A program made the position numbers and the translations under genes. A stretch of DNA of 64,000 bases from an uncultured Methanoregulaceae archaeon (GTDB taxonomy: Archaea; Halobacteriota; Methanomicrobia; Methanomicrobiales; Methanospirillaceae): the NCBI GenBank assembly GCA_963701095.1, contig OY969564.1:2016001-2080000 (forward strand). The letters are read 5' to 3'. Positions 16,791 to 63,437 of the stretch are shown here, in pieces; positions within the stretch are counted from its first letter, which is position 1; each line of letters opens with the position of its first letter. The notes beneath the pieces were generated by a model. That model saw nothing but the letters and a program-made list of their open reading frames with translations. It had not been told where the DNA came from and searched no databases.

Positions 16791-16862
16791 AGCCGCCGGA
16801 GGGACTTGAACCCTCGACCTGCTGATTACGAATCAGCCGCTATGCCGCTAAGCCACGGCGGC
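16791..16862 (-). tRNA. tRNA-Thr(CGU)
   Basis: Reverse complement folds GCCGCCG/CGGCGGC acceptor, GCTGA-TT CGT AA-TCAGC anticodon arm and GAGGG-TTCAAGT-CCCTC T arm; no encoded CCA. Confidence 0.96.
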
Positions 16863-53141: not shown

Positions 53142-53253
53142 GAAGATGTCTCCGAAAGGATAGTTAGCTTAATGATGTGTGCTCTCATCATCTAAATGCA
53201 TATGTTTTCCATACTTTTAACACAATTCTTATAATCTGCTGAATCACATTTCA

Positions 53254-54459
53254 GTGTACATGCGTGTCGCTGACCCCGAAGGATACCGGTATGCCACCGA
53301 GGAGAAAGTCAATCGCAGGATTGATTCCTTTCCTCCTGATGAACGTGAACTGGTAAGAGAGTACATCAATACCAGTAGAGCCCAGAAGGGTATAAAATTA
53401 GTCAGGGTTGTTGGAATTATCGCTGGTCTGAAAGCCTGGCGGGATATCATCAAAAAACCGTTTCAGAAATGGACGCGCAATGATGTTTACCAAGGTGTTA
53501 CCTTCGTACGGGACAAAAAAAATTACAAACAAAATACGTCGATCATTTACATCGCCCTTATGAAAGCGTTCCTGACATGGATGATCACGGAGAAGTATTC
53601 GAAAATTCCCCTTGAAGAGATCATTAAAATCCAGTTGCCGAAAGGCGATACTGGATCCTTCAAACCTGGCGACATTCTTACCGAAGAAGAAGTCAGGACT
53701 ATTCTCTCATGTTGCGGATCTGATCGGGACAGGGCGTTGATTGCCTTGCTCTACGATGGAGGTTTCCGCATGGTTGAAGCGGCAATGATGACCTGGGGAG
53801 ATCTCGATTTTCAGTTCGATGACAGGATCACTGCGCGTACCTCACAGAAAACCTATGTCCCCCGTGTGGTTTCCCTTATGTCTTGTAAAGAGCTGATTGC
53901 AACATGGCGCTCACATTACCCGGGCAATCCGGTAGGCGATAACCCTGTTTTTGTAACCAGGGATGGCGAACCATTTACGTACTCGACAGCCACTGAGGTT
54001 ATAAAAAGTATACGGCTTAAAGCGATCAAGAAAGGTCTCGATCCAAAGAGAATTAAATTACACCAGTTCCGACGAGCATCAATTACCCATGAGGTCAATA
54101 AGGGACGCCCGATTTCTCATATCTGTATTGAACGCTGGGGCCGGGCATATTCTCCGATGATTGAGGTATATGCAAAACCCAGTGAGCAGGACGTTCTTCG
54201 CTCAAAGATGGAAATGTTCGGCGTAGAACCCAAACGGAAATATGAGAAGCGGAAAACAGCGATGACACCGACTCAATGCCAACATTGTGGTTTTATCAAT
54301 TCACCAGAAATTGAGTTCTGCGGAAAGTGCGGGAAACCGTTGTCTGAAGAAGCATTGACTGAAATTGAAATACTCCGAAAGGAGAGAGATATGGCTTTGG
54401 ATTTGGTGAACAAAGCGTATAAGGAAGGAAAGTTGGATTTAAAAGAACTTACGAGGTAG
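53254..54459 (+). CDS. Tyrosine integrase with C-terminal zinc ribbon
   Basis: RDRALI.LLYDGGFR..E (Arg), KT, HQFRR (HxxR) and IEVY (Tyr); CQHC...CGKC ribbon. Confidence 0.9.
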   Translation: MYMRVADPEGYRYATEEKVNRRIDSFPPDERELVREYINTSRAQKGIKLVRVVGIIAGLKAWRDIIKKPFQKWTRNDVYQGVTFVRDKKNYKQNTSIIYIALMKAFLTWMITEKYSKIPLEEIIKIQLPKGDTGSFKPGDILTEEEVRTILSCCGSDRDRALIALLYDGGFRMVEAAMMTWGDLDFQFDDRITARTSQKTYVPRVVSLMSCKELIATWRSHYPGNPVGDNPVFVTRDGEPFTYSTATEVIKSIRLKAIKKGLDPKRIKLHQFRRASITHEVNKGRPISHICIERWGRAYSPMIEVYAKPSEQDVLRSKMEMFGVEPKRKYEKRKTAMTPTQCQHCGFINSPEIEFCGKCGKPLSEEALTEIEILRKERDMALDLVNKAYKEGKLDLKELTR

Positions 54460-56331: not shown

Positions 56332-56795
56332 CCCGGTCGTGGCCTGTCTCTCCAGATGCGAAGGAGTCCCGCCGGGGCGCTCGTATCAAGAACGCGAAGA
56401 AAACCGTTATCGATGGGATACTGTTTGCGTCACGTATGGAATCCCGGCGATATGTCGAGCTTAAGAAACTGAAAGCGGCTGGTGTCGTGACTAAAATCGA
56501 GTGCCAGCCGGTATTTGAACTCCAACCGGCGTACCGGAAATGCTGCGACGTGACATATAACGCCGAAGATGCGCCGTTCCTTTATAAAAAAGGTATCTGC
56601 GAGTGTTGCGGGAAGAAGATGCCGATAATCAAAGCGATCCGGTATGTTGCCGATTTCCGTGTGACCTATGCAGATGGCAGGGTAGAGATTGAAGATGTAA
56701 AAGGCCATGAAACCGAAATTTTCAAGATCAAGAAAAAGATCCTGGAATGCAGGTATCCGGAGATCACGCTTAAAGTAGTAACGAAGGTGCGGTGA
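56328..56795 (+). CDS. DUF1064-family putative endonuclease with Cys-rich insert
   Basis: IDGILFASRME.RRY, QPVFEL, YVADF.V.Y and IEDVKG motifs. Confidence 0.82.
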   Translation: MTRSWPVSPDAKESRRGARIKNAKKTVIDGILFASRMESRRYVELKKLKAAGVVTKIECQPVFELQPAYRKCCDVTYNAEDAPFLYKKGICECCGKKMPIIKAIRYVADFRVTYADGRVEIEDVKGHETEIFKIKKKILECRYPEITLKVVTKVR

Positions 56796-57321
56796 TGTCG
56801 CACCAGCGCAAAGGGGATTACAAAACCCAGAAGGATGAGTGGGAAACCCCGGACTGGCTCTTTGCATTACTTGATCGGGAGTTTAATTTCAGGGTGGATG
56901 CAGCCGCTCGTAAACACAACACAAAGACCGGACTATATTTTGAGGATGCGATTTCTGTGGACTGGGCACATCAAGGGGGAATTGACCCAGCTATTTCCTT
57001 AATCCTCCCTACAGTGTCGGGAATATCAACCGGTTCATGAAGAAAGCCTACAAGGAATCTTTGAAGGGTGCGGTAGTCGTTTGCCTCGTACCAGTCGCAT
57101 CAGATACCCGGTGGTGGCATGATTACGTCATGCATGCGCAGGAGATCCGGTTTATCCGGGGCCGGGTGAAGTTCATCGGCTATGATGAGCATGGAAAACA
57201 GATCCAGAACTCTCCGACATTCTCTTCGTGTGTGGTGATCTTCAAACAGGAACGGCGTCAGGACTGGGAAAACCCAAGAATCGGCGAAACCATCCTGCAA
57301 CCCCGGAAGGTGCCAGCGTGA
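56792..57321 (+). CDS. Phage-type DNA N6-adenine methyltransferase (apparent frameshift near 56975)
   Basis: DEWETPDWLF..LDREF.F.VDAAA, then YFLNPPYS, LVPV.SDTRWW and IRFIRGRVKF in the shifted frame. Confidence 0.88.
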
Positions 57322-57904: not shown

Positions 57905-57914
57905 ATTAATTATT

Positions 57915-58724
57915 TCAAAAAAAATCAGATAGAGAAGAGTTTATATTTTTTATCTTTTTTGGCGGGTAATATACACCTATCAATAACCAATTATTCCACT
58001 TGCTTTCTGTCCCCATATAAAAATAAATATCTCGTTTTGTGAGCTCGTCAAAATATTTTTGTTTGACCTTCGCAAAGCAGTTATCCAATCCATATTTATC
58101 CCGCATCTTTCTCCACAGTTCACCCAGTTCCCAATCTTCACACATCATGTTATGATCTTTACATCGATCATCACAACATCTGAAATGATACCCCATCCAA
58201 TAAGGAATATATTCTAATGGTGACTTGTAATCTCCACAAAGTGTGGTTTGTCTTCCGGTGATTAATTCCTTCTCCCAATCCCTGCATGCACCACGATCTT
58301 TTTTATAAAAATCAAAAATTCGATTGGGTTTGATCAATCCTAAGGATGTTCCATCCTCTTCAGATCGCTCTATCAAGTCTTCAACTGATTTATTCAGGAG
58401 AGGAAGGATAATTTTATTTCGTGCATCCCAATCAATGGGGCTTTTAGAGAGGGACTCATCAACTATTTCTATGGTATCTGGTTTTATTTTGTGGCTTTCC
58501 TTTCTTTGGTATTTTTCATGTTCTTTTGATTTTTGTGCTTCTACTTCAATCCAAATGTATCTTTTAAATTGTTTATGAGGCGGGAGCTTGCGAAAAGGTA
58601 CTGGATACATCCTTATCCAGTTTCCTTCGTCGGTTATACCTGCCACACATACTGTTTCTTCATATTTTTCACTTAAATTTGGATACGCCTTAACAGTAAC
58701 AAAAACTTTAACTTTTTTCCACAT
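57915..58724 (-). CDS. Uncharacterised protein of the type found beside DUF488 genes (possibly dual-OB-like)
   Basis: VKAYP..S.KY.ETVCVAG...WIRMYPVPFR, RKES, SLGLIKP, CEDWE and FYMGT...IGVYYPP pattern. Confidence 0.7.
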   Translation of the reverse strand: MWKKVKVFVTVKAYPNLSEKYEETVCVAGITDEGNWIRMYPVPFRKLPPHKQFKRYIWIEVEAQKSKEHEKYQRKESHKIKPDTIEIVDESLSKSPIDWDARNKIILPLLNKSVEDLIERSEEDGTSLGLIKPNRIFDFYKKDRGACRDWEKELITGRQTTLCGDYKSPLEYIPYWMGYHFRCCDDRCKDHNMMCEDWELGELWRKMRDKYGLDNCFAKVKQKYFDELTKRDIYFYMGTESKWNNWLLIGVYYPPKKIKNINSSLSDFF

Positions 58725-58783
58725 ACTTCCCTTTAAAGCGAATAATAATAAATTCTTCGAGTATTAGAGAATTTTTAACCGTC

Positions 58784-59827
58784 TTATAAATCAATTCTTT
58801 CTTTAAATTCACCGGTTGCTAATATCAAGTTTGCCAAAATATGCCTATGGCAATGTATTTTCTGATCTCTAGTTGGTTTGGCATGCTTTTCCATACACAT
58901 TAAAACGGTCTTGCCGTTACTTTTTATTTCATCCACAAATTTCTTGAAGTCCATTTCTTTCTCAGTATGCCATTTGTAATATTTTTCAAGACATTCTATA
59001 GGAATAGCTCCATCCTTGTATGGGTTTTGCCATTCATATGGAATCCCAAGATCGGGACGGTGCTCGTATTTTATTTTGGCTCTATCCAATTCCCTTGCTA
59101 GAATGGATTTATTAAAATCTGGTTTATATTGAGATTCTGCTGAGAATCGAACGTCTATCAGACGTACGATACCATTATTTTTGAGTATCTCAATGAACTG
59201 TTGAATTTCTTTCCCCTCATAGCCGATTGTATAAATTGTATTATTGAGGAAACGATCTCTTTCCCTTCTTGCATCCTCCTCATTAGTTATATTCTTTGAT
59301 TTTAATATTTTTAATAACACGGGCTGTGCTGATTTCTCAAGCGATGAAATAATTAGTGCTATTGAGTTGCTTATGCTGCCATCAGCCAACGCCTTAGCTA
59401 CGGTTTCATGTAAATCTAAAGCCAGTTGTACCCTGCTATTTACCCAAGTGTGGCTTTTACCAACTTTTTCTGCTATTGCAGCACCTGATAATTTAGTGGT
59501 CTCCATTATTGCTTTTAAAACTCGCCCCTGTTCAACCTGACTCATTTCTTGCCTAAGCAGGTTGGTTTTGATGCTGAGAAACATTGCATCAAGATCACTG
59601 AGGTCTTTCACAGTGGCTTCAATCTCCTTCCATCCGAGTTCTTTAGCTGCTTGGACTCGGTTGTGTCCACCAATTAATTCATACCCTTCTCCCTTGGGTC
59701 TTACGAGGATCGGATTCCACTGACCATCTTCTTTAAGACTTTCTCTTAATTCACTGATGTACTCAGGATCGAGTTTTTCACGAACAGTAAAAGTCGTATC
59801 ATCAATTTTGCTTATTTTTATCTTCAC
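58784..59827 (-). CDS. ParB/Srx domain - HTH - DUF488 fusion protein
   Basis: L.ESLKEDGQWNPILVR...LIGGHNRVQA (ParB), IAEKVGKSHTWV (HTH), IYTIGYEG...LIDVR...LG...LMCME...CHR (DUF488); AGGTGA before GTG. Confidence 0.85.
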   Translation of the reverse strand: MKIKISKIDDTTFTVREKLDPEYISELRESLKEDGQWNPILVRPKGEGYELIGGHNRVQAAKELGWKEIEATVKDLSDLDAMFLSIKTNLLRQEMSQVEQGRVLKAIMETTKLSGAAIAEKVGKSHTWVNSRVQLALDLHETVAKALADGSISNSIALIISSLEKSAQPVLLKILKSKNITNEEDARRERDRFLNNTIYTIGYEGKEIQQFIEILKNNGIVRLIDVRFSAESQYKPDFNKSILARELDRAKIKYEHRPDLGIPYEWQNPYKDGAIPIECLEKYYKWHTEKEMDFKKFVDEIKSNGKTVLMCMEKHAKPTRDQKIHCHRHILANLILATGEFKERIDL

Positions 59828-59871
59828 TGATCATCACCTAAAAATTGTTTTTGAGTTTTTTATGATTCATC

Positions 59872-60087
59872 TTATTTATTTACCTTCCAAGTAATATTAC
59901 CACTCGTTTTTTCTCTGATCAATCCTATGTCCCTCTCCATCCATTTAACCCAAGTATTGTTTGGCACTTTTTGAGGGAAATTTGCTCTCGTTTTTATCTC
60001 ACTCCAAGTGAGTCCCCGAGGATTTGTTATTAACAGATCTTTTATCTTTTCTTTAAACGTTTCATACGTCATTTTCTCTTCTTTCAT
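59872..60087 (-). CDS. Small winged-helix-like protein
   Basis: IKDLL...GLTWSEIK... pattern; first gene of the inverted AT-rich cassette. Confidence 0.55.
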   Translation of the reverse strand: MKEEKMTYETFKEKIKDLLITNPRGLTWSEIKTRANFPQKVPNNTWVKWMERDIGLIREKTSGNITWKVNK

Positions 60088-60387
60088 TCTCAGCTGCCCC
60101 TTATATTTTTACTTTTAGATACTTCCCCCAAATATAAATGAGTTTTCTTTAGTTCTTTTTACACTCTTTTCGATAATCTTCTACGACGTTAATTTTATGG
60201 GAATATTTCAGTAAGGATTTTTGCATTTAGGGATAAATCGTGGCTTCTCCTGGGCTAGTGCTATCCATTCACACCCACCCTCCCGTACCCTCATTGACCG
60301 TCCTGAACCTCACCTATCGTTTATCTCAGTCCCGCAGCCATTTTCCTTTGTATTTCCCGCAAGTATGCGGTGAAGGACACGTGCACT

Positions 60388-60840
60388 ATGCCAGACAACG
60401 GAATGTCAGCCGATATCCTCGGCCTGTTTTTCGGTCAGTACAACTCCGCAGAAGGTGAGACTGACCCCAGTACCGATCTCACGATTGCAAAATCAGATCT
60501 CCTCGGTCTTGGTTCCGAACGCCTCATTGTAGGCCGGTACGCATGGAAAAACTCAACCAACCACACGCCATCCCTCGTCTGCCAGGTGGCAATCGACGGG
60601 CTTCCAATCATATCTGATTATGGCGGTGCAAACATCTGGGCCTCAGGTCGTGCCGGAACCATCGATGAAGTGGTATTTCAGTATCCCAACACCGCAAAAG
60701 CTCTCTCGCTTGGCAAACACACCGTCACCATCACGCCCGGTGTCCATTATGGCGTTCTGGGCGCCCAGAACACCTTCGGTATCGGTTTCCCGGCAACATC
60801 CTGGTTCACCCCCAGGACGTTCAGCATCACGTTAGTGTAA
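60388..60840 (+). CDS. Beta-rich viral hypothetical protein
   Basis: GGTGA upstream; Gly/Thr-rich, LSLGKHTVTI Ig-like ending. Confidence 0.55.
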   Translation: MPDNGMSADILGLFFGQYNSAEGETDPSTDLTIAKSDLLGLGSERLIVGRYAWKNSTNHTPSLVCQVAIDGLPIISDYGGANIWASGRAGTIDEVVFQYPNTAKALSLGKHTVTITPGVHYGVLGAQNTFGIGFPATSWFTPRTFSITLV

Positions 60841-61532: not shown

Positions 61533-61608
61533 GCCACTGAAGCACCTGCTGGCTCGGTGCGTTCAGCCTGTAACTGAAAGGGCGCAGGTTCGATTCCTGC
61601 CAGTGGCT
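61533..61608 (+). tRNA. Non-canonical tRNA-Thr(UGU)-like gene
   Basis: GCCACTG/CAGTGGC acceptor, GCAC/GTGC D stem, TTCAG-CC TGT AA-CTGAA, AGGGC variable loop, GCAGG-TTCGATT-CCTGC T arm. A8, C14 and C33 deviate from consensus. Confidence 0.75.
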
Positions 61609-61765: not shown

Positions 61766-62373
61766 AAAACCCGTTAAAAGAAGAACCTGTGCCTGCCGGT
61801 GTGGGTAAAATCCTGCTGACGCATCTCATCCCGGATCCAAAGAACCCGCGTAAAGATCTTAAAAAAGGCGATCCGGAATTTGAGAAGATCACCACGTCCC
61901 TTGAAAAGTTCGGACAACTCGATCCGATCATCTTCAATACCCGTACCCGGAAGGTGCTCGGCGGTCATCAGCGGTTGAAAGTCCTCGCATCAAACGGATA
62001 TACGGAACTTAACACGTTTACGGTAGGGGCATACACCTGGGCATTTGCAGAGACCGATCTTGCAGAACTCTCACCATCGGAAGAAAACGCTGCTAATATC
62101 GCCCTGAATAAAGCGCAAGGCGACTGGAACGTGGACCAGCTCCTGATCAATCTCCAGGATCTTAAAGCCGAGGGAATGCTCGAGGTCTCCGGGTTTGATG
62201 AAAAGGAGTTCGAGAAATTAAAAAAGAAACTGGGAGAACCCGAAGATTCCAGCGACACCTCCCTGAAATCCGCGTTTGAAGTCATTATCGAGTGTGCTAA
62301 CGAAAGCGAACAGGAACAGGCGTATAACGAGCTCGTAGAGGCCGGGTACAAATGCCGCGTTTTGACATTGTAA
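61762..62373 (+). CDS. Phage-type ParB/Srx N-terminal domain protein
   Basis: LIPDPKNPRK, SLEKFGQLDPIIFN, GGHQRLK and NIALNK..GDW motifs. Confidence 0.85.
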   Translation: MKNPLKEEPVPAGVGKILLTHLIPDPKNPRKDLKKGDPEFEKITTSLEKFGQLDPIIFNTRTRKVLGGHQRLKVLASNGYTELNTFTVGAYTWAFAETDLAELSPSEENAANIALNKAQGDWNVDQLLINLQDLKAEGMLEVSGFDEKEFEKLKKKLGEPEDSSDTSLKSAFEVIIECANESEQEQAYNELVEAGYKCRVLTL

Positions 62374-63437
62374 AGAAAACGGAAGCTGCCGGAACGTTCA
62401 AGGTTGAACAGGTAAAGGGCGCCTTCGATCTCCAGACATCTACCATCCAGGAGCATTTTGCCGGCGACATTGCCATTGAAGGTAAAGACTGGAACATCGG
62501 CCTGATTGTAGGCCGGAGCGGAACAGGGAAAACCACAATCGCAAAAGAATGCTTCACTGATGCCTACATAGCGCCAAACGATTATAGCCTGGCTGCAATC
62601 GTGGATCAGATGCCGAATGGACTTTCCTATGCTGAAATCACGCACATGTTCACGGCTGTAGGTTTTTCATCACCTCCTTCATGGCTGAAACCATACGCGG
62701 TACTGAGCAATGGGGAACAGATGCGGGTCGACCTCGCCAGGGCCCTTTTGGAAGAGCGCGAGTTGATAGTGTTCGATGAGTTTACGAGCGTGGTAGACCG
62801 GGACGTTGCGAAAGTCTGCTCTCTGGCGGTCAGTAAAGCCGTCCGAAAGATGGGTAAAAAGTTTGTCGCCGTTTCCTGTCACGATGATATCATTGCATGG
62901 TTGCAACCTGATTGGCTCTACGATACCAATCAGCAGACGTTTTCCTTTCGGGACGGCCACGAAAAACGCCCTGAAATCACGGTTGACGTATTCGACACCC
63001 ACAGAAACGCAAAGCTATGGAAGGTTTTTGCGAAGTATCACTATCTGAATACCGAGATTAAAAGGGGCACGGACACGTTTGTAGGCTGTATCAATAATGA
63101 ACCTGTAGCCTTCTGCGCTGTCAGGCATTTTCCTCACCCGATGAATCCCAGGATAAAGATGGTTCACCGGCTGGTTGTCCTGCCGGATTACCAGGGAATA
63201 GGTATAGGCACCCGGTTCCTGGGATTTGTTGCTGACCTGTATAAGAAAAAGGGATTTGCCGTTCGCCTGGTTACTTCCCAGGTGTCGCTTATCAATTCCC
63301 TGGAAAAACACGGCTGGCGGTTGAAATCGTTCGGCCACCAGGCTAAAGTAAAGAAGGCTGGACTAAAACATCTGAAAAAAACGAACAGTAACCGCAGGAT
63401 TACCGCATCGTTCAAATATACTGGGGGGATTAATTGA
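62352..63437 (+). CDS. ABC-type ATPase fused to a GNAT acyltransferase
   Basis: GRSGTGKT, LSNGE, VFDEF and SCH; then KYHYL and RLVVLPDYQGIGIG (GNAT motif A). Confidence 0.88.
   Translation: MPRFDIVKKTEAAGTFKVEQVKGAFDLQTSTIQEHFAGDIAIEGKDWNIGLIVGRSGTGKTTIAKECFTDAYIAPNDYSLAAIVDQMPNGLSYAEITHMFTAVGFSSPPSWLKPYAVLSNGEQMRVDLARALLEERELIVFDEFTSVVDRDVAKVCSLAVSKAVRKMGKKFVAVSCHDDIIAWLQPDWLYDTNQQTFSFRDGHEKRPEITVDVFDTHRNAKLWKVFAKYHYLNTEIKRGTDTFVGCINNEPVAFCAVRHFPHPMNPRIKMVHRLVVLPDYQGIGIGTRFLGFVADLYKKKGFAVRLVTSQVSLINSLEKHGWRLKSFGHQAKVKKAGLKHLKKTNSNRRITASFKYTGGIN

Follow-up and report, generated by a model that had tools for sequence, protein, structure and literature searches.

A three-gene cassette in an integrated archaeal virus

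We analysed a window of 64,000 nucleotides (contig OY969564.1 of assembly GCA_963701095.1, positions 2,016,001 to 2,080,000, forward strand; coordinates below are those of the window unless stated otherwise) from the 2.63-Mb genome of an uncultured Methanoregulaceae archaeon. Towards its right end, a cassette of three genes (57915-60087) separates the early module of an integrated archaeal tailed virus from the late one and runs against the direction of transcription of both. In order of transcription the cassette comprises a small gene, a gene fusing a ParB_N domain and a ParB-type helix-turn-helix (HTH) domain to DUF488 (hereafter the fusion), and a gene for a second long protein, the partner. 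Judged by sequence comparison, this is a rearranged, split and ParB-fused variant of PDC-M19, a pair formed by a DUF488 protein and a double-OB (oligonucleotide/oligosaccharide-binding) protein. The features of the cassette are listed here.

59872-60087, minus strand: small gene (71 amino acids), from the list of open reading frames (ORFs)
58784-59827, minus strand: ParB_N-HTH_ParB-DUF488 fusion gene (347 amino acids, GTG start), from the ORF list
59558-59824, minus strand: ParB N-terminal (CTPase-fold) domain of the fusion, residues 2-90, from PF02195 and structure alignments
59288-59548, minus strand: ParB-type HTH DNA-binding domain of the fusion, residues 94-180, from PF17762; aligns with the HTH of ParB/Noc structures
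58787-59239, minus strand: DUF488 enzyme-like domain of the fusion, residues 197-347, from PF04343 and an AF2 model
57915-58724, minus strand: partner gene (269 amino acids), from the ORF list
57905-60240, no strand: AT-rich island bounding the cassette (GC 0.354), from GC content and the limit of similarity to metagenome contig L009
60131-60138, minus strand: TATA-like element TTTATATT (coding strand), 44-51 nt 5' of the small-gene ATG, read from the sequence

All long ORFs around the cassette are on the plus strand and its own three are on the minus strand, with gaps of 44 nt between small gene and fusion and 59 nt between fusion and partner. The cassette has a GC content of 0.359 (partner 0.353, fusion 0.375, small gene 0.343), compared with 0.469 for the provirus to its left, 0.517 to its right and 0.482 for the first 53 kb of the window. 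Only 7 of 1237 sliding windows of 2173 nt were equally AT-rich and all seven overlapped the cassette, so the contrast in composition is real and local. No other 2.2 kb of the window has so low a GC content. A preliminary description of this stretch, made from its letters alone, had picked out three co-oriented, AT-rich minus-strand genes running against viral transcription between early and late regions, and its account of the layout was confirmed.

The TATA-like element is a putative promoter of the cassette, and a GGGG run resembling a ribosome-binding site lies 10 nt 5' of the small-gene start. A scan of the cassette for sigma-70 promoters and terminators, a type of scan unsuited to archaea, performed no better than on shuffled sequences, and the inverted repeats within the cassette were short and unremarkable. 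The sequencing runs listed as carrying the stretch include one DNA run, from a soil metagenome, which may be where the stretch came from, and no RNA run.

The fusion protein

Pfam matches to ParB_N (PF02195, 4e-17) and HTH_ParB (PF17762, 1.6e-7) define the first two domains of the fusion, which also matches NCBIfam TIGR00180 parB_part (7.4e-34) and solved ParB, Spo0J and Noc structures in the PDB (1e-17 to 1e-23, the best at 1.1e-23). Box II reads G-G-H-N-R (residues 53-57) and box I reads K-T-N-L-L-R (residues 87-92, reaching just past the ParB_N domain); structure alignment sets the box II G-E-R-R of Spo0J/ParB opposite G-H-N-R and the box I E-N-L-Q-R opposite T-N-L-L-R. Across 23 fusion homologs, G54, H55, R57, K87, T88, N89 and R92 are invariant. 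Like the canonical ParB, Spo0J and Noc clamps (PDB 1vz0, 6sdk, 7bnk and 7ol9), the fusion has an N-terminal CTPase-fold domain and an HTH, and it retains two residues of each box: in box II the glycine and the final arginine, in box I the Asn and the Arg. It departs from them in box II (GERR to GHNR) and box I (E to T), in carrying DUF488 in place of the C-terminal dimerisation domain, and in having neither parS nor ParA, the latter being absent from the ORFs neighbouring the cassette.

The DUF488 domain matches PF04343 at 2.3e-18 over residues 208-334 (family cut-off 22.2 bits) and bears the motif residues C311-M-E313 and C326-H327-R328. Of these, C311, E313, C326, H327 and R328 are invariant or nearly so, both in the 23 fusion homologs and in 28 aligned DUF488 domains, three of which come from clamp-free proteins, meaning DUF488 proteins that have no ParB. 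These matches and residues uphold the earlier reading of the middle gene as ParB plus HTH plus DUF488 with the C-x-E...CHR residues retained. The same description had found the architecture unfamiliar, a view that did not hold: phrog_3264 covers residues 2-309 of the fusion, there are dozens of homologs, and the fusion has been published (see below).

An AF2 model of the DUF488 domain, built on a 28-row alignment, had a pLDDT of 93.8. Its nearest folds in both structure searches were Cys-dependent phosphatases of the protein tyrosine phosphatase (PTP) fold and tetrapyrrole methylase N-domains (VIA Z 6-8.3), including CobF (2npn, Z 8.3) and the Sulfolobus enzyme SsoPTP (2dxp, Z 7.6, root-mean-square deviation 3.2 over 114 aligned residues), while Foldseek returned no match to the model at E ≤ 0.001. 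As in the rhodanese-phosphatase fold, a conserved Cys lies where a strand of the model ends and an Arg where a helix begins, but the loop between them is far longer than the C-x5-R P-loop. Burroughs and Aravind reportedly put the RapZ-C/DUF488/DUF4326 clade in the rhodanese-phosphatase superfamily in 2023, together with diphthine-synthase-like methylases, and are said to have predicted roles for it in DNA-end processing within conflict systems. The two kinds of structural neighbour found for the model agree with that placement. Pfam also has the families DUF488-N3a, DUF488-N3i and DuOB, which match canonical relatives.

An archaeal fusion of a ParB-CTPase fold, an HTH and DUF488 has been described, and one such protein binds cytidine triphosphate (CTP) by DRaCALA (Kaljevic et al., PNAS 2025;122(49):e2527592122 / bioRxiv 10.1101/2025.10.10.680097). 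The three-domain architecture is that of the cassette, and the accessible part of the paper presents the fusion without a partner gene, a link to PDC-M19 or a function.

The partner protein

The partner, with the motif ETVCVAG...WIRMYP, matches PADLOC PDC-M19B (PDLC04508) at 1.5e-66 (residues 4-258 on profile positions 3-264 of 269) and phrog_25907 at 3.3e-51, and it has 512 homologs at E ≤ 0.001. The window's protein itself has no match to the Pfam family DuOB (PF22557) even at E ≤ 10, nor to any other Pfam family. Two homologs 50-57% identical to it do match DuOB above the cut-off (P0002 at 1e-7 and P0007 at 1.8e-7), and the homolog P0025, at 1.4e-5, falls just under it; in all three the match lies in the N-terminal half.

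An AF2 model of the partner (46-row alignment, mean pLDDT 91.2) consists of two beta-barrel units. The best Foldseek matches were tandem-OB DNA binders, namely Pyrococcus RPA (1.2e-5), Teb1 and HIN domains, and an exhaustive VIA search with residues 1-90 returned the OB folds of PriB, RPA and SSB at Z of about 8 (up to 8.3). The partner is therefore predicted from its model to be a tandem OB-fold (DuOB-like), RPA-like nucleic-acid binder. Like the RPA- and HIN-type binders (PDB 8aaj, 8oej, 3u58 and 4l5q), the model has two OB folds in tandem, the second with a conserved Cys/His cluster; the two sides share 8-14% sequence identity and TM-scores of 0.2-0.3, a likeness of fold only, the scores being low because the relative arrangement of the domains differs. 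The invariant residues of the partner include C26, R74, E76, C183, H191, D197 and E199, and the cysteines at 188 and 195 are mostly conserved; a zinc site formed from C26, C183, H191 and Cys 188/195 is suggested by this pattern. Complex prediction for the DUF488 domain with the partner gave a score of 0.01 against a mark of 0.32, which says nothing for or against binding.

Among cultured phages, genes of the partner family also occur in seven Gordonia phage records, directly 3' of an annotated immunity repressor in the lysogeny module and near integrase, Cro and a HipA-like gene (for example, Nymphadora NC_031061.1, genes 43-44; L132). The repressor gp44, 5' of the partner-family gene, has no similarity to DUF488 (hhalign probability 0.8%).

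Kinship with PDC-M19

PDC-M19, made up of a DUF488 protein (A) and a protein of about 260 amino acids (B), is one of 145 'guilt-by-embedding' phage defence candidates (Payne et al., bioRxiv 10.1101/2024.01.29.577857). It was PADLOC matches that identified the gene pair of the cassette with it. The partner matches B over its full length, and the fusion, adjacent and co-oriented, matches PDC-M19A (PDLC04505) at 2.6e-25 with its DUF488 part only (residues 184-342 on profile positions 137-288 of 294). PADLOC thus recognised B in full, A in part and the small gene not at all, and the pair agrees with the earlier remark that DUF488 genes often lie beside proteins with a TVCxAG...WIRxYP motif.

Canonical pairs were found in three archaeal genomes (two Micrarchaeota and one DHVE2; L001-L003), where the partner gene overlaps the stop of a protein with an AbrB-like N-terminus; in the A proteins of the two Micrarchaeota, a middle domain stands between this N-terminus and DUF488-N3a. 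Compared with PDC-M19A, the fusion has its N-terminal half replaced by ParB_N and HTH_ParB, while the cassette has no AbrB-like domain and encodes the winged-HTH-like domain as a gene of its own, upstream. The loop of its DUF488 domain between C-x-E and CHR is also longer than in the canonical protein.

The separate upstream gene is the small gene of the cassette. Its protein has no Pfam, PADLOC, NCBIfam or PHROG match. Its counterpart in the AbrB-like/DUF488 protein of L001 is the stretch of residues 57-121 (43% identity, E 2e-15), and tblastn and alignment relate it to L001, L002, L055, L086, L019 and L018. A phmmer search of 1.84 billion representatives gave 153 relatives at E ≤ 0.001, mostly of 60-170 amino acids. 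Pfam was run on 24 of them, among which were all 11 with 180 or more amino acids. Four of the 11 are long proteins with the domain in several stretches, and three of the remaining seven (P0194, P0201 and P0267) have DUF488/DUF488-N3a directly after it. Among the 13 shorter relatives (110-172 amino acids), six have a weak to moderate AbrB/MazE-type match before it. The small gene is probably a stand-alone copy of the domain, itself probably a winged helix, that precedes DUF488 in canonical PDC-M19A, and its product is likely a DNA-binding regulator or specificity factor. The winged-helix label given to it in the preliminary description has no direct family match behind it; the sole support, and an indirect one, comes from two of the long multi-match relatives, which match the winged-helix/HTH families AbiEi_4 and IclR.

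A word-based search for longer relatives of the small gene gave one match and was uninformative. We also considered the small gene as a truncated remnant with a decayed AbrB-like part upstream and rejected this, as tblastn of AbrB-bearing relatives against 59801-60500 found the winged-HTH-like part only.

The AbrB/MazE-like domains in the N-termini of relatives, or in small genes neighbouring them, raise the question of an addiction or toxin-antitoxin-like module, in which a DNA-damaging product, kept in check by another, would stabilise the carrier element. A compact, tightly linked, mobile gene pair would suit such a module, and ParE and AbiEii genes lie near some loci. The window copy, however, has no AbrB-like domain, none of its components exceeded the threshold for a known toxin or antitoxin family in the Pfam, PADLOC and NCBIfam scans, and a clamp, an enzyme and an OB binder would be atypical of toxin-antitoxin pairs. 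We consider this explanation highly improbable.

Recurrence and linkage

Searches with the DUF488 region retrieved 53 protein clusters, some named from Methanosarcina and Methanoculleus, and 46 of the 53 contained all three Pfam domains. The metagenome loci of the fusion examined here are the best 80 of 219 stretches encoding relatives; partners in them were detected with a hidden Markov model (HMM) built from 120 partner homologs. A partner-family ORF was found in 59 of the 80 loci, in the following positions relative to the fusion.

Directly downstream, same strand: 50 loci of 80
Directly upstream, same strand: 5 loci of 80
Elsewhere: 4 loci of 80
Not found: 21 loci of 80

The adjacent, same-strand arrangement of fusion and partner in the window therefore recurs in 55 of the 80. 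When only loci with at least 800 nt on each flank were counted, the partner was present in 37 of 44. Fusion and partner form a strongly linked two-gene core. A small gene 5' of the fusion, alone or with an AbrB-like domain, was found in 13 of the 80 loci (12 of the 62 with at least 300 nt upstream). The co-occurrence of the genes outside this provirus is thus borne out for fusion and partner and, less often, for the small gene, whose domain is also fused to DUF488 in canonical systems.

This distribution bears on another explanation, that the cassette is a maintenance or regulatory module in which a KorB/ParB-like, CTP-dependent clamp with a small HTH partner silences or partitions the provirus or an episome, the DUF488 and OB parts being accessory. 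It would be in keeping with a ParB_N-HTH part nearest to chromosomal ParB, Spo0J and Noc, with a small and likely DNA-binding protein as the first product of the operon, and with the ParA-like ATPase encoded about 1.3 kb from the fusion in one locus (L037). Yet it is the partner that is far more constant than the small gene, and the partner family also works with DUF488 proteins having no ParB. The catalytic-looking residues of DUF488 are strictly conserved, the fusion is without a C-terminal dimerisation domain, and the window is without ParA or a canonical parS. We judge a maintenance role very unlikely.

Identities among partners suggest how the modules of the cassette may have combined. 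With the partners of the clamp-free systems of Micrarchaeota, the window's partner shares 51-52% identity; with those of other clamp loci it shares no more than 43%, the near-identical copy on L009 excepted. These pairwise identities suggest that modules are exchanged between clamp-borne and clamp-free systems.

Fusion and partner are single-copy in the 2.63-Mb genome. Among 401 sampled genomes of the phylum, three match the fusion at E ≤ 1e-20, its own genome being one of them; the genus has 11 more genomes, and none of these matches. Of the remaining two matching genomes, one has a full-length fusion and one the DUF488 part only; in one of them, G150, the partner is directly upstream of the fusion on the same strand. 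Scans of IMG/VR with the fusion or its alignment gave matches to the ParB N-terminal part only, none reaching DUF488, and in INPHARED phages no place covered 80% of the fusion.

The neighbourhoods of 29 long fusion loci (139 ORFs within 2.3 kb) contained a transposase, integrase, resolvase, terminase, primase or element-type DNA polymerase in 12 cases. Recognisable defence genes occurred in four (type II/III methyltransferase, type IIG restriction-modification-like, AbiEii and HNH restriction-like), besides one generic UvrD helicase. With 12 against four of the 29, the fusion is associated with mobile DNA more than with defence islands.

Several relatives have further variations. In L068, L069, L071, L073, L074, L075 and L076, whose fusions are 37-40% identical to the window's, an extra ORF of 163-175 amino acids directly follows the partner and a divergent gene of about 130 amino acids lies upstream, with a weak AbrB/MazE-like match in L071 and L073 (the two tested). 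L069, L073 and L075 have an ORF of about 90 amino acids between fusion and partner. The extra ORFs of these seven loci have no Pfam or PADLOC match. In a genome of the same order, L008 (G199:C1:989691-990134) encodes a 246-amino-acid protein whose C-terminal DUF488 is 55% identical to the window's and whose 96-amino-acid N-terminus is different; no partner-family ORF was found within 1.5 kb of it.

The provirus and its cargo slot

Archaeal chromosome makes up the left part of the window; among its genes are those for a NOG1-type GTPase and a presenilin-type signal-peptide peptidase. From 53254 onward, provirus genes other than the cassette lie on the plus strand, as follows; the last line gives, for comparison, a gene from outside the provirus.

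53254-54459, plus strand: tyrosine integrase with zinc ribbon, left of the cassette
Left of the cassette, plus strand: ribbon-helix-helix protein gene
Left of the cassette, plus strand: DUF1064 resolvase-like gene
56792-57040 and 57037-57321, plus strand: Dam-type methylase, two overlapping ORFs in different frames, left of the cassette
Right of the cassette, plus strand: two ORFs without known function
61533-61608: tRNA-Thr (TGT), within the provirus, right of the cassette and left of the ParB-like nuclease gene
Right of the tRNA-Thr, plus strand: ParB-like nuclease family gene
62352-63437, plus strand: ATPase (ABC/AAA-like)-GNAT acetyltransferase fusion (phrog_11143, 4.9e-94), directly 5' of the small terminase gene
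Right of the ATPase-GNAT gene, plus strand: small terminase subunit gene
L129:11142-12353 (G000:C1, about 103.1-104.4 kb), plus strand: DUF4238 gene (PF14022) of a second virus-like region in the same genome

The element extends past the end of the window, with more plus-strand ORFs downstream in the genome. Its ends could not be fixed: the only repeat found matches at 17 of 18 nt (53184-53201 and about 43 kb downstream, E 0.036), too weak for att sites.

The second virus-like region, at about 98-108 kb in the same genome, is syntenic with the provirus gene for gene, most early genes having 52-92% protein identity and the ATPase-GNAT fusion 83%. A search of the genome found no cassette in it. 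At the equivalent position, directly after the homolog of the 81-amino-acid gene that abuts the cassette, it has a 403-amino-acid DUF4238 gene (PF14022, 2.1e-31) on the plus strand with a GC content of about 0.29. This gene, which has no PADLOC match, is foreign cargo as well and occupies the same slot. The metagenome contig L009, in turn, holds all three genes of the cassette at 90.3% nucleotide identity over 2153 nt (window 57905-60055). Similarity persists for 10 nt beyond the partner stop, up to the base next to the stop codon of the adjoining viral gene (57904). The contig runs on for a final 201 nt that do not match the window, which indicates a different context. The DUF4238 gene in one copy of the slot and the L009 copy of the cassette elsewhere show that the cargo slot is swappable and that the cassette moves as a unit. 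Together with the foreign composition and opposite orientation, they support the earlier proposal of a prophage accessory module.

Cargo of this kind could also serve the virus itself in DNA processing, modification or counter-defence, with DUF488 acting on DNA ends or on nucleotide-derived signals. Treatment of the virus's own genome or of molecules of the host would then let the virus evade host immunity, or bring replication or packaging to completion. The cassette is virus-borne, PHROG families exist for both fusion and partner, and DNA methyltransferases adjoin the pair in L001, L002, L019 and L055. The ParB-fold survey suggests anti-defence or phage-host roles for prophage-enriched ParB fusions (Kaljevic et al., PNAS 2025;122(49):e2527592122), and the group of Burroughs and Aravind had earlier proposed that the related DUF4326 clade processes ADP-ribose-linked phosphates in viruses (PMC9503650). 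On the other hand, the second virus-like region does without the cassette, which makes it dispensable for this virus type and also counts against the maintenance role discussed above. Opposite orientation and foreign GC content are more in line with a moron than with a core viral function, some pairs are near cellular genes (NadA in L057 and, read from translations with no family check, ribosomal-protein-like ORFs in L001), and HTH and tandem OB domains point to DNA rather than to small-molecule signals. We think a virus-serving role rather unlikely.

Three further observations concern the surroundings of the cassette. The Dam-type methylase of the window looks frameshifted, because the second virus-like region keeps a single intact gene of 200 amino acids (L129:10225-10827). 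Besides the tRNA-Thr within the provirus, a second tRNA-Thr (CGT) lies at 16791-16862 in the host part of the window. A perfect 18-bp palindrome (60754-60771), the core of a 24-nt near-palindrome, is found inside the viral ORF 60370-60840, about 670 nt 5' of the first gene of the cassette, and is unique in the genome; the chance of such a palindrome in 11 kb was estimated at about 0.04, and a connection with the ParB module is not shown.

Interpretation

We interpret the cassette as horizontally acquired provirus cargo, a split and ParB-fused PDC-M19 variant, that the lysogen or the virus would use against other viruses or mobile DNA, and we put the probability of this reading at roughly 50%. 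The ParB N-domain would bind CTP and the ParB HTH would bind DNA, so that the fusion might load on DNA as a nucleotide-gated clamp or switch. The clamp would bring DUF488, as a Cys-x-Glu/Cys-His-Arg enzyme of phosphatase-like fold, to the DNA. There, the RPA-like double-OB partner may recognise single-stranded DNA, ends or replication intermediates and so direct or license the enzyme, with the small winged-helix-like protein as a regulator or specificity factor. The outcome might be superinfection exclusion, or defence by processing the termini or intermediates of incoming viral or mobile DNA. The analysis establishes what the parts are, that catalytic-type and nucleotide-box residues are conserved, that the genes are linked across many loci and that the cassette is mobile; mechanism and function are inferred. 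A defence role is plausible but unproven and draws on the PADLOC models of the PDC-M19 candidate; delivery of a Cys enzyme to DNA by a nucleotide-gated ParB clamp is likewise plausible but unproven, drawing on domain logic and on the CTP binding reported for one archaeal fusion.

A number of results weigh against this interpretation. Regarding the clamp, no Pfam match to a ParB C-terminal dimerisation domain was found in the fusion, whose residues 197-347 are DUF488, and for want of this domain the clamp may not close. Where canonical ParB has a glutamate in box I, the fusion has a threonine; in ParB mutants, loss of this glutamate may mean that CTP is bound without being hydrolysed, and the fusion may accordingly combine binding with poor hydrolysis. 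The parS consensus had no matches in the window at up to three mismatches, and searches with this consensus and for inverted repeats found no loading site for the ParB module there. Regarding the enzyme, the VIA Z-scores of its structural neighbours (at most 8.3) are middling by the tool's own guidance. Moreover, DUF488-N3a (PF22751), which canonical clamp-free DUF488 proteins match at 1e-7 to 2e-10, has no match in the fusion at E ≤ 0.1. Regarding the system as a whole, the partner is missing from seven of the 44 well-flanked loci (four of the seven having N-terminally incomplete fusions), the small gene in only 12 of 62 loci makes the three-gene form a recurrent minority, and defence genes are scarce near the fusion. 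The PDC-M19 candidates are explicitly described by their authors as untested (bioRxiv 10.1101/2024.01.29.577857).

In a bolder version of the defence reading, immunity would act on nucleic acids in a new way, with an enzyme of Cys-phosphatase fold travelling along DNA on a CTP-gated sliding clamp of the ParB type. The double-OB protein would flag single-stranded regions, nicks or ends of invading genomes, and the enzyme would remove or transfer a terminal phosphate-linked group, leaving the invader's DNA unreplicable or unpackageable. The small protein would act as KorA does for KorB, fixing the place where the clamp loads or stalls, and the double-OB partner would be interchangeable between clamp-borne and clamp-free DUF488 enzymes. 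We offer this as a speculation that is unlikely to hold.

Parts of this picture are already known, as the gene pair is catalogued (PADLOC PDC-M19) and the ParB-HTH-DUF488 fusion is published (PNAS 2025). To this the window adds a split-off winged-HTH-like gene, homologous to part of the A protein of canonical systems; a provirus cargo slot that can be compared with its counterpart within one genome; and the combination of a clamp-free-type partner with a clamp-borne enzyme. We found no publication linking the fusion to a double-OB partner or to PDC-M19, and Burroughs & Aravind 2023 may do so. From the DUF488 literature, only the ParB-fold survey and a paper on a Methanoperedens plasmid were relevant among the matches listed.

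The DUF488/double-OB pair occurs widely and figures among catalogued defence candidates. The ParB module of the fusion provides a handle on mechanism, since CTP binding, DNA loading and sliding can be assayed by established methods, and the lysogen-borne cassette alongside the cassette-free related region in the same genome forms a natural comparison. Should the cassette serve exclusion, it would bring a clamp-delivered enzyme into the known logic of antiviral systems and extend the sparse set of defences encoded by archaeal viruses; if not, it would still define a role for the ParB fold other than segregation.

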